From the IMG/VR virus record IMGVR_UViG_2671180884_000025: DNA of 6,491 nt. The stretch is one strand, 5' to 3'. Numbering within the stretch: the stretch's first letter is position 1; each line of letters begins with the position of its first letter. Positions 105-5,947 of this stretch are shown piece after piece. This stretch comes from a virus. Its lineage: Duplodnaviria > Heunggongvirae > Uroviricota > Caudoviricetes. The position numbers and the translations under genes were made by a program. The notes under the pieces were generated by a model that was given only the letters and a program-made list of their open reading frames with translations, was not told the origin of the DNA and searched no databases.

Positions 105-3100
105 ATGGCGACGTTACGTGAACTGATTATCAAAATTTCGGCAAATTCGCAGTCATTCCAGTCGGAGATCCAGCGGGCTTCCCGCATGGGCAGTGAATAT
201 TACCGGACCCTGCAGAATGGCGGGCGTCAGGCTGCCGCAGTCGCCCGGGAGCAGCGACGCGCCCTGGCTGAGCTGAACAGCCAGTTGACGGAAATCCGCG
301 CTTCAGCTGCCGGAACGGCGGGGGCATTTGCAGGTGCCTTTGCCACCGGACACCTGATTTCTCTGGCCGATGAATGGAGTTCCGTGAATGCCCGACTGAA
401 ACAGGCGTCGCAGTCATCCGATGAATTTTCGTCATCACAGAAAGTGCTGATGGATATCAGCCAGCGGACGGGCACGGCATTTTCAGATAATGCGGCCCTG
501 TTTGCCCGCTCGGCAGCCTCAATGCGTGAATATGGCTACAGTGCTGATGATGTGCTGAAGGTGACGGAGGCCATTTCCACGGGGCTGAAAATCTCCGGTG
601 CCAGTACGGCAGAGGCGGGCTCGGTGATCACCCAGTTCAGCCAGGCGCTGGCACAGGGTGTGTTACGCGGTGAGGAATTTAATTCGGTCAATGAAAGCGG
701 AGACCGGATCGTACGTGCACTGGCTGCGGGTATGGGCGTGGCCCGTAAAGACCTTAAGGCGATGGCGGACGACGGCAAACTGACGGCGGATAAAGTCGTT
801 CCTGCGTTAATCAGCCAGCTGGGGGTATTGCGTGATGAATATGCCGCCATGCCGGAAACGGTCTCTGACGGGATCACAAAGGTGGAAAACGCCTTTATGG
901 CCTGGGTGGGTGGCGCGAATGAGGCCAGTGGGGTGACAAAAACGCTCTCCGGCGTGCTGAACGGTGTTGCCGGTAATATTGATAATGTGGCAACAGCAGC
1001 GGGGGCGCTGGTTGCCGTCGGGGTTGCCCGGTACTTTGGCAATATGGCCTCCGGAGCGGTGTCTGCCACGGCAGGACTTGTGACGGCAGCACGTAATGAA
1101 GTGGCACTGGCGGAAGCACAGCTCAGGGGGACGCAGATTGCCACGGCGCGGGCAAGGGCAGCCGTGTACCGTGCACAGCAGGCTGTGGCGGCAGCCCGCG
1201 GGACGGAGATGCAGATTGCTGCAGAAGCCCGTCTGGCGGCCACACAGGAACGCCTGAACAGAAATATTGCTGCCAGAACCGCAGCCCAGAATGCGCTGAA
1301 CAGTACAACGGCGGTGGGCTCACGTCTGATGACTGGTGCGTTGGGACTGGTTGGTGGCGTACCCGGACTGGTGATGCTGGGGGCAGCAGCATGGTATACG
1401 CTGTACCAGAATCAGGAGCAGGCCAGGGAGTCAGCGCGCCAGTATGCACTGACGATAGATGAAATCGCGCATAAAACGCCGTCAATGTCTTTGCCTGAAG
1501 CCTCAGATAATGAAGGACGAACACGGGCGGCGCTGGCAGAGCAGAACCGGCTGATTGATGAACAGGCCAGCCGGGTGAAATCCCTGCAGGAAAAAATCGC
1601 TGGATATCAGTATGTTCTGGCTAACCCTGGCTGGACAACCGGTGACGGATTCATGATAAACCATCTGACATCGGTGAAGACCGTAACGGAAGGGCTTTCT
1701 CAGGCAACAGAGCAGCTTGCCGTTGAGCAGTCCCGTCTGGCACAGATGCAGGAAAAAGCGCAGTCCATTCAGGATGTGCTTGCCGGGCTGGAAGACCGTC
1801 GTGTGGCGTTAATTCGTCAGCAGGCGGCAGAGCAGAATAAGGTGTACCAGTCCATGCTGGTTATGAACGGTCAGCATACGGAATTCAACCGTCTGCTGGG
1901 GCTGGGGAATGAACTGCTTCAGCAGCGGCAGGGACTGGTGAATGTACCGTTACGGCTGCCGCAGGCCACCCTGGATGATAAACAGCAGAGCGCCCTGACA
2001 AAAACAGAACGTGAGCTGGCCCTGTCCCGACTGAAGGGGGAGGAAAAAGAGCGTGCCCGGCTGGGGTATGCGGCGGATGACCTCGGTTTTGTGGGGGATT
2101 CGTATCAGGAGGCGAGACAGCGTTATATCAGTAATGCTCTGGAAGCCTGGCGTAATAACGAGGCGAACAAACCTAAATCCCGGGGTGGAAAATCAGAGAC
2201 GGAAAAAGCGGAAGACAGTTTTTCCCGGCTACTGAAGCAGCAGAAAGAGCAACTGGCACTGGCGGGTAAGAATACAGAGCTGGCGAAGCTGAAGTACCAG
2301 ACTGCGCAGGGCGAACTGAAAACCCTGACGGAGATGCAGAAGCAGGAACTGCTGCGTAACGCGGCCCTGATTGACCAGCAAAAAATCCGGGAACAGTTGC
2401 GATCCCGGGAAGAGACCCTGAAGAATGATAATGTGGCTGCGCGTGCATCAAATGAAGCCGAACTGCTGGGATACGGGCAGGGAGAACGAGCCAGGGAACG
2501 CATGCGGGAGTTGCAGCAGATCCGCGACAGCTTCCGCCAGAAGGATGCGGACCTTCAGTCTCAGTATCAGACCGGGGATATCAGTGAGGATTTTTACAGA
2601 CAGGCACGGGCACAGAACGCGCAGTATCTGAGCGAACGCCTTAAGGACCAGGCAGCCTTTTATGCCGAATCGGATGCGCAGCGTGCGGACTGGCAGAAAG
2701 GCTTGCAGGAGGGGCTCAGTAACTGGGTGGATAATGCGTCCGATTACGCCTCACAGGCAGCACAGCTTGCGACGGAGGGTATCTCAGGGATGGTGAATAA
2801 CATCACGGAGATGCTGAACGGGAATAAAGTGGAATGGCGCAACTGGGCCTCATCAGTGCTGCAGGAAATATCAAAAGTTCTTATGAATGCCGCGATTGTC
2901 AACGGGATCAAGACGGCGGCAAACAGTATGTCCGGTGCAGGAGGATTTATTGGCAGTATTGGTGACTGGCTGGGCGGTGCGGTGGCCAATGCAAAAGGCG
3001 GCGTGTATACCTCGGCAAACCTGAGTGCGTACAGCAACAGCATTGTGGATACGCCCACGTACTTTGCCTTTGCAAAAGGGGCCGGGCTGATGGGGGAAGC

Positions 3101-3347
3101 CGGACCTGAAGCCATAATGCCCCTGACCCGGGCGGCGGATGGCTCGCTGGGCGTACGTGCCGTGGGCAGGATGAACGGGAGTGCGGGTCTGGTGTATTCC
3201 CCGGTCTACCACATCGCCATTCAGAATGACGGGGCCAACGGTCAGATAGGGCCGGAGGCGGCAGGCAGCCTTGTTCAGTTGATTGACCAGCGGGTGCAGG
3301 CGGTGATGCTGTCCATGCGACGAGACGGAGGAATGCTGAGTGGCTGA
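105..3347 (+). CDS. H: Phage tail tape measure protein (lambda gpH-like C-terminal region), 1080 aa
   Basis: Long ORF with an AAGGTG Shine-Dalgarno 5-6 nt before ATG 105. Gly/Ala-rich hydrophobic segments (e.g. GALVAVGVARYFGNMASGAVSATAGLV, LMTGALGLVGGVPGLVMLGAAAWYTLY), a long Q/E/R/K-rich coiled-coil-like middle, and a C-terminus (…IQNDGANGQIGPEAAG…MRRDGGMLSG) resembling the lambda gpH C-terminus as recalled. Sits immediately upstream of M/L/K. Confidence 0.92.
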   Translation: MATLRELIIKISANSQSFQSEIQRASRMGSEYYRTLQNGGRQAAAVAREQRRALAELNSQLTEIRASAAGTAGAFAGAFATGHLISLADEWSSVNARLKQASQSSDEFSSSQKVLMDISQRTGTAFSDNAALFARSAASMREYGYSADDVLKVTEAISTGLKISGASTAEAGSVITQFSQALAQGVLRGEEFNSVNESGDRIVRALAAGMGVARKDLKAMADDGKLTADKVVPALISQLGVLRDEYAAMPETVSDGITKVENAFMAWVGGANEASGVTKTLSGVLNGVAGNIDNVATAAGALVAVGVARYFGNMASGAVSATAGLVTAARNEVALAEAQLRGTQIATARARAAVYRAQQAVAAARGTEMQIAAEARLAATQERLNRNIAARTAAQNALNSTTAVGSRLMTGALGLVGGVPGLVMLGAAAWYTLYQNQEQARESARQYALTIDEIAHKTPSMSLPEASDNEGRTRAALAEQNRLIDEQASRVKSLQEKIAGYQYVLANPGWTTGDGFMINHLTSVKTVTEGLSQATEQLAVEQSRLAQMQEKAQSIQDVLAGLEDRRVALIRQQAAEQNKVYQSMLVMNGQHTEFNRLLGLGNELLQQRQGLVNVPLRLPQATLDDKQQSALTKTERELALSRLKGEEKERARLGYAADDLGFVGDSYQEARQRYISNALEAWRNNEANKPKSRGGKSETEKAEDSFSRLLKQQKEQLALAGKNTELAKLKYQTAQGELKTLTEMQKQELLRNAALIDQQKIREQLRSREETLKNDNVAARASNEAELLGYGQGERARERMRELQQIRDSFRQKDADLQSQYQTGDISEDFYRQARAQNAQYLSERLKDQAAFYAESDAQRADWQKGLQEGLSNWVDNASDYASQAAQLATEGISGMVNNITEMLNGNKVEWRNWASSVLQEISKVLMNAAIVNGIKTAANSMSGAGGFIGSIGDWLGGAVANAKGGVYTSANLSAYSNSIVDTPTYFAFAKGAGLMGEAGPEAIMPLTRAADGSLGVRAVGRMNGSAGLVYSPVYHIAIQNDGANGQIGPEAAGSLVQLIDQRVQAVMLSMRRDGGMLSG

Positions 3348-3681
3348 GATAAAAACGCTGCATCTGGTCCCGCGTGAAGGGATGCAGGTGAGTGAGAAAC
3401 CGTCGGTGGTGAGGGTCCGGTTTGGTGACGGTTATGAACAGCGCCGACCGACGGGACTGAATGCCCGACTGAAGACATTTCAGGCAGTGTTCCGGGTGAC
3501 GGATGAGGCGACCCGGCGCTGGCTGGATGAATTTTTATCGTGGCATGGTGGTTACCGTGCCTTTTTGTGGCGACCGCCGAAACATAACCGGACGGTCAGG
3601 GTGGTGTGCCGGGAGTGGAGTATTACGGATAACGCCAGGTACAGCGATTTCAGTTGTATGATGGAACAGGTAATAAGATAA
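3340..3681 (+). CDS. M: Minor tail protein M (lambda gpM homolog), 113 aa, GTG start overlapping the end of H
   Basis: Translation MAEIKTLHLVPREGMQVSEKPSVVRVRFGDGYEQRRPTGLNARLKT… aligns by eye with lambda gpM (…SVPSVRKVRFGDGYSQRAPAGLNANLKT…). GGAGG at 3326-3330 precedes the GTG at 3340; the start overlaps the H stop (3345-3347) by 8 nt, suggesting translational coupling. Confidence 0.9.
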   Translation: MAEIKTLHLVPREGMQVSEKPSVVRVRFGDGYEQRRPTGLNARLKTFQAVFRVTDEATRRWLDEFLSWHGGYRAFLWRPPKHNRTVRVVCREWSITDNARYSDFSCMMEQVIR

Positions 3682-3774
3682 GTTTTTGAGAAAAAAACCT
3701 AAAAGCATCGTTTATTAATTTGCTTGCTTGTTATTTTTGTTTTGTCTTGACATAAAGTGCTATCAAAGTTGTTT

Positions 3775-3830
3775 TTTTACATTTTGAAACAAAATAAAAA
3801 TTGAACCCGTAATTTAATTTACAATATTTT
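3775..3830 (+). promoter_or_regulatory. Putative porin promoter region: OmpR-box-like motif TTTACAATTTTGAAACA (3775-3791), candidate -35 TTGAAC (3801-3806), candidate -10 TACAAT (3820-3825)
   Basis: The motif resembles the OmpR-binding C1 site of ompC as recalled from memory (TTTACATTTTGAAACATCTA), with one extra A. TACAAT is a near-consensus -10, but the spacer to TTGAAC is only 13 nt, so the promoter may be activator-dependent with a poor -35. The whole 207-bp M-porin spacer is AT-rich. Confidence 0.4.
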
Positions 3831-3888
3831 GAGTTTTGTTCATGACATCTCTATGCATGAATAGTTCAGTTTAAATAAGGATTAAATC

Positions 3889-3957
3889 ATGAAAAAAATG
3901 ACAGTGGCACTTTCAGCTGTGGCAGCAGCTGTAATTTTTGCAGCGGGGGCGCAGGCT
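3889..3957 (+). other. Sec signal peptide of the porin (23 aa, [23 protein letters not shown], predicted cleavage before AEVY)
   Basis: Positively charged N-terminus (KK), hydrophobic core, A-x-A site immediately before the conserved mature porin N-terminus. Confidence 0.8.
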
Positions 3958-5052
3958 GCAGAAGTATACAATAAAGATGGCAATAAACTTGATGTGTATG
4001 GGCGTGCAACTGCACTCCATTATTTCTCCAGTGATAAGGGGGATGATGGAGATAAGACATACGCACGTCTGGGCTTTAAAGGTGAAACTCAGATTAATGA
4101 CCAGTTGACTGGTTTTGGTCAGTGGGAATATCAGTTCTCTGGTAATAAAGCTGAATCAGAGGGTGCTGCGGGTAATAAAACCCGTCTTGCATTTGCAGGT
4201 CTGAAGTTTGGTGAGTTTGGCACCATTGATTATGGTCGTAACTATGGTATTGCGTACGATGTTGGTTCTTATACTGACGTATTACCAGAGTTTGGCGGTG
4301 ATGGCTGGACCCAGACCGATAACTTCATGACAGCCCGTACTTCCGGGGTATTAACCTATCGTAATACAGATTTCTTTGGGCTTGTCGATGGCCTGAATTT
4401 TGCGGCACAGTACCAGGGTAAAAATGATCGGGGTGATCTCCGGAAAGCTAATGGTGATGGTCACGGTTTCTCAGCCAGTTATGAATATGAAGGTTTTGGT
4501 ATCGTTGCCGCATATATTAATGCGGACCGAACCAATAATCAGGAAAAAGGTCTGAATGGTACTCTGACGATTGAACAAACTGATCCTTTAACCGGTAAAG
4601 TGACTGAAAAGCAGATCGTTGTTGATTCCGGTAGTGTTGCAAAAGGTAAACACGCTGAGATGTGGGGAGTCGGACTAAAATACGATGCTGACAACCTTTA
4701 CCTGGCTACAACATATTCCGAAACTCAGAATCTGACGACCTTTGGTGATAAAGGAGTTGCAGATAAAGCGCAAAACTTTGAAGCGGTACTGCAGTATCAG
4801 TTTGATTTCGGTCTGCGTCCATCTCTGGCATTCCTGCAGTCTCGTGCTCAGGATGTCATTGTAGGTGGTAAAAACTATGGTGACCAGGATTTGGTTAAGT
4901 ATGTTGACGTAGGTGCGAAATATTACTTCAATAAAAATATGTCCACCTATGTTGATTATAAAATCAATCTGGTTGATGAGAATAAGTTTACCAGGGATGC
5001 GGGCATTGCAACGGATGATATCGTTGCTGTTGGTATGACTTATCAGTTCTGA
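3889..5052 (+). CDS. General diffusion porin, OmpC/OmpF/PhoE/NmpC/Lc family (16-strand beta-barrel trimeric porin), 387-aa precursor
   Basis: AAGGA Shine-Dalgarno 7 nt before the ATG. N-terminal signal peptide with AQA cleavage motif, then mature N-terminus [15 protein letters not shown] as in enterobacterial porins. Conserved blocks [24 protein letters not shown], loop-3 [78 protein letters not shown]-terminal …VGMTYQF with terminal Phe, the outer-membrane beta-barrel signature. Confidence 0.95.
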
Positions 5053-5072
5053 TGATTACTGGTAAATAAATA

Positions 5073-5126
5073 CAGGCCATCTGCCCTCACAGATGGCCTG
5101 TATCAGTGGAAGTTATATTTCCACTG
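5073..5126 (+). other. Two tandem stem-loops in the porin 3' UTR, neither followed by a T-tract
   Basis: First: CAGGCCATCTG (5073-5083), loop CCCTCA, CAGATGGCCTG (5090-5100). Second: CAGTGGAA (5104-5111), loop GTTATAT, TTCCACTG (5119-5126). A further palindrome ATCAGCTA-T-TAGCTGAT lies at 5137-5153. Confidence 0.5.
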
Positions 5127-5210
5127 GTCACTGCGATCAGCTATTAGCTGATTTAATTTTCATTTTATTACCTTCATCGTTTTTGATTTTTTAATTGAAC
5201 TATTTTATCA

Positions 5211-5234
5211 GGGGCGCATTGCGCCCCTTTTTTT
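5211..5234 (+). terminator. Rho-independent terminator ending the porin transcription unit
   Basis: Perfect GC-rich stem GGGGCGC (5211-5217), loop ATT, GCGCCCC (5221-5227), followed by 7 T (5228-5234). Ends 14 nt before the L start codon. Confidence 0.85.
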
Positions 5235-5248
5235 ATGGGTGGATGTTT

Positions 5249-5947
5249 ATGCAGGAGATCAACGAAGAAAGCCTGAATGAGTCGGTTAAATCAGAGCAGT
5301 CACCGCGGGTGGTACTCTGGGAAATTGACCTGACGGTGCAGGGTGGTGAGCGGTATTTTTTCTGTAATGAGCTGAATGAAAAAGGGGAGCCGGTCACCTG
5401 GCAGGGGCGGAAGTACCAGGCATACCCGATTGACGGCAGCGGCTTTGAGATGAACGGGAAAGGGAGCAGTGCCCGCCCGTCACTGACGGTGTCGAATCTG
5501 TTCGGGCTGGTTACCGGGATGGCGGAGGATTTGCAGAGCCTGGTGGGGGCCACGGTGGTTCGTCGCCGGGTGTATGCGCGTTTTCTGGATGCGGTGAATT
5601 TTGTGGCAGGCAATCCTGAGGCCGACCCGGAGCAGGAGCTGACGGACCGGTGGGTGGTGGAGCAGATGTCATCGCTGACGGCCATGACGGCCTCGTTTGT
5701 GCTGGCGACACCGACGGAGACGGACGGGGCGCTGTTTCCCGGTCGCATCATGCTGGCGAACACCTGTATGTGGGATTACCGGGGCGATGAATGCGGGTAT
5801 AACGGTCCGGCAGTGGCGGATGAGTTCGACAACCCCACCACGGATATCCGGAAGGACAGATGCAGCAAGTGCATGCGCGGGTGTGAACTGCGCAGGAATG
5901 TCGGCAATTTTGGCGGTTTCCTTTCCATCAATAAACTTTCGCAGTAA
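5249..5947 (+). CDS. L: Minor tail protein L (lambda gpL homolog), 232 aa
   Basis: From ATG 5249 the translation MQEINEESLNESVKSEQSPRVVLWEIDLTVQGGERYFFCNELNEKGEPVTWQGRKYQAYPI…GNFGGFLSINKLSQ closely matches lambda gpL as recalled, including its 232-aa length. The track ORF starts at 5195, but that extension spans the terminator hairpin and has no lambda counterpart, so 5249 is preferred. Confidence 0.93.
   Translation: MQEINEESLNESVKSEQSPRVVLWEIDLTVQGGERYFFCNELNEKGEPVTWQGRKYQAYPIDGSGFEMNGKGSSARPSLTVSNLFGLVTGMAEDLQSLVGATVVRRRVYARFLDAVNFVAGNPEADPEQELTDRWVVEQMSSLTAMTASFVLATPTETDGALFPGRIMLANTCMWDYRGDECGYNGPAVADEFDNPTTDIRKDRCSKCMRGCELRRNVGNFGGFLSINKLSQ

Follow-up and report, generated by a model that had tools for sequence, protein, structure and literature searches.

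A porin 3' untranslated region of an Escherichia coli lambdoid prophage as a probable IpeX-family RNA with predicted MicF-like pairing to host porin mRNAs

We analyzed a 6,491-nt stretch of viral DNA (IMG/VR record IMGVR_UViG_2671180884_000025; referred to here as the window) that corresponds to the tail region of an Escherichia coli lambdoid prophage and is 100% identical to NZ_CP027586.1 and other genomes, mostly of Shiga toxin-producing E. coli (STEC) and clinical strains. The stretch studied comprises positions 5053 to 5248, namely, the 196 nt at the right-hand end of a moron that carries a porin gene and separates the tail genes M and L. We consider it probable that 5053-5235 is the 3' untranslated region (UTR) of this porin gene and harbors a structured regulatory RNA, a member of the IpeX family, that acts as a MicF-like repressor of host porins, with the terminator that it shares with the porin mRNA closing the moron. 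IpeX, which derives from the 3'UTR of the nmpC/lc porin genes in the cryptic prophage DLP12 and in phage PA-2, was reportedly described by Castillo-Keller, Vuong and Misra in 2006 (J Bacteriol 188:576). According to four later articles (PMC12197685, PMC5069750, PMC8313858, PMC8065619), IpeX is made from the phage porin promoter within the porin transcript and then processed, lowers OmpC and OmpF, and needs Hfq for some of its targets, reportedly not for ompC.

The folding of 5050-5240 resulted in an energy of -71.8 kcal/mol, as compared to -38.8 ± 3.8 kcal/mol for dinucleotide shuffles (z -8.7), and 0 of 200 shuffles folded as well. This calculation and that of the terminator energy had been named as checks in the original prediction, which had placed two tandem hairpins at 5073-5100 and 5104-5126, a palindrome at 5137-5153, and a canonical terminator at 5211-5234, 14 nt before the ATG of gene L. 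All four structures were recovered at these positions or 1 to 3 nt away from them (Table 1). The first hairpin is the core of the longer hairpin HP1 (5070-5103), the palindrome corresponds to HP3 (5135-5153), and the terminator is composed of a stem at 5210-5228 and a U7 tract, the end of which (5235) is separated from the start codon of gene L (5249) by 13 nt. The element thus has the build of an intrinsic terminator, a G+C-rich stem-loop with a U-tract immediately behind it. It marks the right-hand boundary of the moron and the predicted 3' end of the RNA. Two parts had been absent from the original prediction, namely, the unpaired AU-rich stretch at 5154-5209, which is the most informative part as to function and contains a seed antisense to the translation-initiation regions of ompC and ompF, and the conserved CCCUCA loop of HP1.

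To determine the distribution of the UTR, we conducted a BLAST search for distant matches in 5,426 complete E. coli genomes, and further copies were taken from IMG/VR. The UTR was present in 107 of the 5,426 genomes (~2%), many of them STEC, in identity bands from 100% to 72.8%. There were one or two copies per genome, always behind a porin gene, and in 6 of the 6 divergent loci inspected the UTR was located between the porin gene and tail gene L. A search of species-representative genomes for a seed-plus-terminator pattern, which omits the seed variants of the window and of P7, returned only Escherichia (E. coli and E. albertii) and a few metagenome-assembled genome hits that are likely due to chance. 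An alignment of 11 distinct homologous UTRs from E. coli prophages (class A; alignment A3) was used to assess the 38 proposed base pairs. Standard pairs were formed in 99.3% of the cells, via compensatory and G:U changes. Eight pairs were changed on both sides, a number reached by 3 of 500 column shuffles, and structures slid by 1 to 3 columns gave 0 to 3 such pairs. These compensatory pairs were found in HP1 (three), HP2 (four, with 100% of the cells pairing), and HP3 (one, plus G:U changes), and the terminator stem was invariant across the 11 variants. In some of the variants, HP3 is lengthened by an insertion of 10 to 13 nt. By these counts, the structure of the UTR exceeds chance and is conserved as a folded RNA.

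Several helix positions alternate G:U with A-U or G-C pairs. Since the opposite strand would have A.C mismatches at these sites, the helices belong to the + strand RNA. Judged by this pattern of substitutions, the UTR is transcribed on the + strand, at least within the porin mRNA. The same pattern bears on the notion that the stretch, with its three perfect or near-perfect palindromes, is a DNA-level element (protein-binding palindromes, a recombination site, or a repeat) or, given a 33-codon open reading frame (ORF) at 5093-5194, a small protein gene. We find this hardly credible: helices that accept G:U and not A.C are strand-specific RNA helices, and the low copy number and constant position behind a porin gene also argue against a DNA-level element. 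For lack of conservation, the ORF was rejected. Variants have lost its ATG (CAGATGG changed to CAGGCGG), and its frame is broken by the HP3 indel, the length of which (10 or 13 nt) is not a multiple of three.

The kinship with IpeX emerged from the comparison of four classes of porin 3'UTRs, namely, class A (the window), class B (DLP12 nmpC, i.e., IpeX), class C (a third lambdoid class, represented by the locus L043), and class D (nmpC of P7/JL22). Read side by side, all four have the layout HP1-HP2-HP3-seed-terminator, with a long hairpin closed by AUA...UAU, a second hairpin with AGUGG...CCACU, a third hairpin, an AU-rich unpaired stretch with U(A/U)UUAC, and a GGGGCG...CGCCCC terminator. 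A covariance model built from class A only found exactly the porin 3'UTRs of P7 (51.8 bits, E 4e-10), of class C (45.4 bits), and of DLP12, i.e., IpeX (41-42 bits, E ~1e-7). In the reverse direction, a model of classes B, C, and D only retrieved positions 5049-5233 of the window (59.8 bits, E 3e-12), which was the sole match in the window and a 25.8-kb prophage locus. Because the covariance models match in both directions, we conclude that the window UTR is, by these sequence models, an unannotated and diverged member of the IpeX family, residing in a different phage module. What the original prediction had offered as speculation, a small RNA derived from the 3'UTR, has with this homology to the IpeX of DLP12/PA-2 become the central point. 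The P1-like P7 (L009:3617-3798) and JL22 (L010) carry the same kind of porin 3'UTR, and the linker GUCACUGC between HP2 and HP3 recurs at the matching position of class C.

Classes B, C, and D fitted helices 1, 2, and 4 with 15 compensatory pairs in a model-guided alignment, a result that leans towards the structure because this alignment was fitted to the class-A model. It was used instead of a MAFFT alignment of the three classes, which misplaced HP1/HP3 and from which RNAalifold then derived spurious long-range pairs. The kinship between the window and IpeX comes from architecture and covariance models, not from BLAST, as a blastn search of the UTR against phage genomes returned only terminator-sized chance matches and did not link the two. 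A scan of the window UTR against Rfam yielded nothing at the gathering threshold, and matches to RAGATH-17, Hrs12, STnc290, DapZ, and similar families were terminator or AU-rich artefacts. Rfam 15 contains no IpeX family, and the DLP12 region gave no real match in it. It was a weak match to the Rfam MicF family that led us to consider porin regulation and hence IpeX.

As in DLP12, the window UTR is located directly behind a phage OmpC-family porin gene, between its stop codon and an intrinsic (Rho-independent) terminator on the same strand. Both RNAs possess three hairpins, an AU-rich unpaired stretch with UAUUACC, the GGGGCG..CGCCCC terminator, and a hairpin with a CCCUCA loop, and for each of them, pairing with the 5' region of ompC is predicted. 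Despite this similarity in sequence and structure, plain sequence identity between them is low. They also differ in the host module, which is the Q-S late region for IpeX (nmpC/lc) and tail genes M/L for the window; in the location of the CCCUCA loop (HP2 in IpeX, HP1 in the window); in the site of best ompC pairing (-32 to -2 for IpeX versus -13 to +12, covering the Shine-Dalgarno [SD] sequence and AUG, for the window seed); and in ~30 nt of extra distal sequence in the window that pair with the 5'UTR of its own porin mRNA.

The segment that would confer the regulatory activity is the seed within the unpaired stretch between HP3 and the terminator, where the best-conserved unpaired segment is located. 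The core of this segment, UUAUUACCUU (5165-5174), does not vary within class A. The reverse complement of 5152-5176 reads GAAGGTAATAAAATGAAAATTAAA, and the ompC initiation region reads GAGGGTTAATAACATGAAAGTTAAA; the match contains one bulge, one mismatch, and two G:U pairs across the SD sequence, the AUG, and codons 2 to 4. For ompF, UUAUUACCUUCAU (5165-5177) pairs with AUGAGGGUAAUAA (-16 to -4), the site covered by MicF, and the UUUCAUU of the seed pairs with +3 to +9. Pairing energies were calculated with duplexfold for the single-stranded stretch (5152-5210) on the -40 to +25 regions of the targets and compared with 500 shuffles. The window stretch scored -23.6 kcal/mol on ompC (0/500 shuffles as low) and -24.9 kcal/mol on ompF (2/500). 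Corresponding values were -28.5 kcal/mol for the class-A variant L007 on ompC (1/500), -26.7 kcal/mol for IpeX on ompC (0/500), -26.2 kcal/mol for P7 on ompF (1/500), and -27.4 kcal/mol for the control MicF on ompF (0/500). Every other UTR class also scored on ompC and/or ompF, with the values for IpeX on ompC and P7 on ompF being comparable to that for MicF on ompF. In 5,359 of 5,371 E. coli genomes, the identity of the ompC target region is 99% or higher.

As a second control, we used 48 real translation-initiation regions (TIRs) from fetched loci. The 28-nt seed alone resulted in -21.5 kcal/mol on ompC and -18.9 kcal/mol on ompF, and none of the 48 control TIRs was as low, whereas the phage's own porin gave -7.5 kcal/mol, with 37 of the 48 controls being lower. 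The seed thus discriminates the host porins from the porin that accompanies it. The unpaired stretch of IpeX, AUAUAAACCUUCUGUUAUAUAUUACCCUUUAUUU (L002:4368-4530, - strand), is near-continuously complementary to K-12 ompC from -32 to -2, and 0/48 control TIRs were as low. The P7 seed contains UUAUUUAUUACC, which is identical to 12 nt of the MicF seed, and pairs over ~20 bp with ompF.

A second conserved feature is the CCCUCA loop. A hairpin with this loop is present in all four UTR classes, and some class-A variants have CCCUUA, which still pairs through a G:U. The loop is on HP1 in class A and on HP2 in classes B, C, and D, and the stems that carry it are completely different in sequence. Its complement, UGAGGG, is the SD sequence of ompF and also occurs within the ompC 5'UTR, where the SD sequence is GAGGG. 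The SD sequences of the phage porins themselves (UAAGGA, AAAGGGC) do not contain UGAGGG. An anti-SD contact made by the loop is therefore plausible from its complementarity.

These two features also weigh on the simplest account of the UTR, in which it is the 3' end of an mRNA and has no trans function, its hairpins shielding the transcript from 3' exonucleases and its terminator insulating the tail genes. The strong hairpins and the canonical terminator are in line with this account, moron boundaries typically bear a terminator, and the separate RNA species is inferred from sequence only. However, it leaves unexplained why the unpaired core UUAUUACCUU is invariant while stems drift and compensate, why the unpaired stretch is antisense to the ompC/ompF initiation regions in four classes and not to those of the phage porins themselves, and why the CCCUCA loop is kept on unrelated stems. 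In addition, a trans effect has been published for the homologous IpeX. The stabilization of the mRNA, which the original prediction had suggested for the upstream hairpins, is possible but not sufficient as an explanation, and we regard a role confined to the mRNA 3' end as unlikely.

The match to Rfam MicF (RF00033) is full-length (1-94) and covers 5146-5236, but its score of 28.3 bits is far below the gathering score of 79, and its E value was 0.19 when 2.2 kb were searched and 0.019 when the search was confined to 221 nt. The window and MicF share UUUAUUACC.UCAU in an unpaired seed, CUAUUU ahead of the terminator, and an intrinsic terminator with a U-tail. MicF is antisense to the ompF SD and start codon region, and the window RNA is predicted to pair with the same region at a comparable energy (-24.9 versus -27.4 kcal/mol). 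Both are also genetically linked to an OmpC-type porin gene. In contrast, MicF is an independent gene located divergently upstream of ompC, whereas the window element is on the same strand downstream of its porin gene, has no promoter-like site, and carries three extra hairpins. Furthermore, the window matches ompC and MicF does not (for MicF on ompC, 14/500 shuffles and 13/48 controls were as low). Since both the Rfam threshold and the gene arrangement set them apart, the window RNA would work like MicF and yet is no MicF. Outside porin 3'UTRs, the only near-match of the class-A model was the K-12 micF locus (L012:2058-2174; 14.8 bits, E 0.07).

This last match, together with the full-length Rfam alignment, the shared motifs, and the common ompF site, could be taken to mean that 5146-5236 is a phage copy of micF, i.e., an independent ~90-nt paralogue with its own promoter that merely happens to lie downstream of a porin gene. 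We judge this very improbable. Apart from the low score and the E value of 0.19, there is no promoter-like site upstream of 5146, and a promoter spanning HP3 would be broken by the indel of 10 to 13 nt. The conserved unit moreover includes the three upstream hairpins that are absent from MicF, and similarity limited to the seed can arise from convergence on the same target. In terms of sequence likeness between micF and the window, shared ancestry and such convergence are indistinguishable.

More serious is the possibility of a function in cis. The distal part of the UTR contains AAUUGAACUAUU, which forms a 12-nt inverted match with one G:U to AAUAGUUCAGUU in the 5'UTR of the porin mRNA, where 0.01 such matches are expected by chance. 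Through this segment and its neighbours, the 3'UTR might pair with its own 5'UTR, towards the SD sequence, and control the translation or stability of the porin mRNA by a 5'-3' contact or by feedback from a released RNA. The pairing is kept in all class-A variants, at -13 to -18 kcal/mol; several of the changes are wobble-compatible, and at one position both sides have changed (U-A to A-U between L007 and L003). The single-stranded stretch was also exceptional on its own 5'UTR (0/200 shuffles; A3, 0/48 controls). Nevertheless, classes B, C, and D show little or no such pairing (-7 to -9 kcal/mol), the helix of the window itself contains a U.U mismatch, and independent changes are few. As the seed and the anti-SD loop are left unexplained by a cis element, the pairing is more likely an extra feature than an alternative to host-porin regulation, and a purely cis-acting element appears possible, if doubtful.

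Our preferred interpretation, repression of host porins by an IpeX-family RNA, involves the following steps. The RNA would act while still part of the complete porin transcript or after being processed from it, the UTR being intact or cleaved near 5154. Its seed would pair with host ompC at the ribosome-binding site (RBS) and start codon and with ompF at the site used by MicF. This pairing would block translation, and the host porins would fall while the phage porin, unmatched by the seed, is made; in a porin-expressing lysogen, the phage porin would thus replace the host porins. The CCCUCA hairpin loop may add its anti-SD contact, and Hfq would bind at the U-rich tail and the terminator. Sequence features of the Hfq type are the U7 tail and UAUUUUAUCA ahead of the terminator stem, and the general architecture of Hfq-dependent small RNAs (sRNAs) makes the distal stretch a candidate Hfq-binding module. 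In the lysogen, porin transcription would stop 13 nt ahead of tail gene L, and during lytic growth, Q-modified polymerase would read through the terminator. The reading through of terminators by Q-modified late transcription is established lambdoid biology, with which the insulating role given to the terminator in the original prediction is consistent.

CpxQ, SroC, and DapZ are processed, 3'UTR-derived, Hfq-dependent sRNAs of enterobacteria. The window RNA resembles them in sharing its terminator with the parent mRNA, in its U-rich tail and AU-rich seed, and probably also in its dependence on the cleavage of the parent transcript. Unlike these sRNAs, its parent is a phage moron, and its predicted targets are host paralogues of the product of the parent gene.

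Several points weigh against host-porin repression. Every functional step proposed for the window RNA is inferred from its sequence. A scan for sigma-70 consensus sequences found no promoter-like site inside the UTR, so that an independent sRNA would have to arise by processing. Because the seed is as AU-rich as porin initiation regions generally are, complementarity by chance is inflated; only 48 control TIRs were used, and duplexfold disregards intramolecular structure and accessibility. Model E values are approximate, and the alignment on which the model of classes B, C, and D was trained (A7) had been built with the class-A model as a guide. The pairing of the distal stretch with the porin's own 5'UTR could indicate a role in cis. 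Finally, the later articles relay the effect of IpeX on ompC as Hfq-independent and as unexplained by simple complementarity (PMC12197685, PMC8313858), a description that fits poorly with a plain MicF-type mechanism. Either the complementarity between IpeX and ompC was overlooked in the published description, or it is not the driver of the effect. Two internal promoter candidates picked by eye, TAATTT and TAACTT, were rejected, as neither has a -35 element and the HP3 indel would destroy them.

The features of the window are compiled in Table 1.

Table 1. Positions of genes, RNA structures, and pairing segments in the window
Feature	Position	Strand	Remarks
Tape-measure gene H	105-3347		
Tail gene M	3340-3681		
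Porin moron between M and L (upstream region, porin gene, structured 3'UTR, terminator)	3672-5248	+	
5'UTR motif AAUAGUUCAGUU of the porin mRNA	3860-3871	+	Complementary to AAUUGAACUAUU, 5193-5204
OmpC-family porin gene, 387 aa	3889-5052	+	Pfam Porin_1, E 1.8e-139
HP1, 14 bp, loop CCCUCA (5084-5089)	5070-5083 with 5090-5103	+	-24.5 kcal/mol, z -9.1
HP2, 10 bp	5104-5126	+	-11.2 kcal/mol, z -5.9
Linker GUCACUGC between HP2 and HP3	5127-5134	+	Near-invariant in class A (11-sequence alignment A3)
HP3 (palindrome), 8 bp	5135-5142 with 5146-5153	+	-8.7 kcal/mol, z -3.9
Seed UUUAAUUUUCAUUUUAUUACCUUCAUCG	5152-5179	+	Antisense to ompC -13 to +12 and to ompF -16 to -4 and +3 to +9
Unpaired AU-rich stretch between HP3 and terminator	5154-5209	+	
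Distal AU/U-rich stretch before terminator	5180-5209	+	Candidate Hfq-binding module
Intrinsic terminator, 8 bp (7 G-C), loop AUU	Stem 5210-5217 with 5221-5228, U7 5229-5235	+	-15.9 kcal/mol
New SD sequence (GGGUGGA) and start codon of L (5249)	5237-5251	+	Supplied by the moron, replacing the M/L overlap
Tail gene L	ATG at 5249		Phage_tail_L, E 3e-93; followed by another tail gene

Morons are extra genes with their own terminator that are located between conserved late genes of lambdoid phages, as exemplified by lambda lom and bor. Porin-less relatives are ~94% identical to the window up to position ~3671, and identity resumes exactly at 5249. Because homology breaks and restarts at these two points, 3672-5248 is, by comparison of the sequences, a moron, i.e., an extra gene between conserved neighbours that is missing from close relatives. 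The stop codon of M and the start codon of L overlap as TGATG in the porin-less relatives (e.g., LC567839); the moron replaces the last codons of M (within 3660-3690) and abolishes this overlap. Like lom and bor, the window element is thus inserted between adjacent, translationally coupled neighbours, ends in a strong terminator, has no counterpart in close relatives, and is likely expressed from the prophage. Unlike these morons, it adds a regulatory RNA to the protein gene, as predicted here, and rebuilds the RBS of the downstream tail gene. Another in-frame ATG is found at 5243, ahead of the L start codon, and the porin ORF is closed by tandem in-frame stop codons, TGA TGA (5050-5055), of which the second occupies 5053-5055. 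The RefSeq label of the porin in a 100% identical E. coli prophage is 'porin OmpC'.

The promoter scan of the window gave no match to the sigma-70 consensus upstream of the porin gene. The 16-mer TTTACATTTTGAAACA at 3776-3791, ~100 nt 5' of the phage porin start, is identical in the chromosomal ompC upstream region and reads TTTACATTTTGTTACA in variants from other prophages. In the ompC upstream region, this OmpR-box-like sequence is the OmpR C1 box. Since the 16-mer is common to both upstream regions, the phage porin may be under EnvZ/OmpR control. In the 100% identical prophage of NZ_CP027586.1, the portal gene is annotated as frameshifted (L001:2930-5514, outside the window), and this prophage copy may therefore be defective. 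The prophage of strain DETEC-P1056 (L004, NZ_CP116169.1) is wrecked by IS66/transposase insertions and retains a tape-measure fragment and a frameshifted L. Its porin gene and structured UTR are nevertheless intact, a hint that the cassette is perhaps kept for the benefit of the host.

A broader and rather speculative proposal, which we consider unlikely, is that the phage porin genes of Escherichia share a modular RNA for porin swapping, composed of the CCCUCA loop, a MicF-like seed that shifts register, and, in the tail-module class, a distal segment pairing with the 5'UTR, with IpeX being one member. The loop, as an anti-SD element, would then account for the reported Hfq-independent effect on ompC, the linear seed would change its register on the initiation regions of ompC and ompF in the course of evolution, and the distal segment would tie the silencing of host porins to the expression of the phage porin in the tail-module class. 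As a corollary, MicF and the phage elements would be of common ancestry, derived from an inverted porin 5' end that was captured beside a porin gene.

Since 2006, IpeX has been a lone and poorly understood phage sRNA, the effect of which on ompC was reported as unexplained by base pairing. If our interpretation is true, IpeX would be part of a family of at least four diverged classes, carried by P1-like phages and, in two different genome modules, by lambdoid prophages. The anti-SD loop of every class, together with a seed antisense to the RBS of ompC and/or ompF, would provide a concrete base-pairing mechanism, and the family-level sequence analysis suggests such a mechanism, by which host porins are probably silenced while the phage's own porin is swapped in. 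Porin levels determine antibiotic permeability and the receptors for many phages, and ~2% of complete E. coli genomes (107/5,426), many of them STEC, would carry an unannotated regulator of the two major porins.

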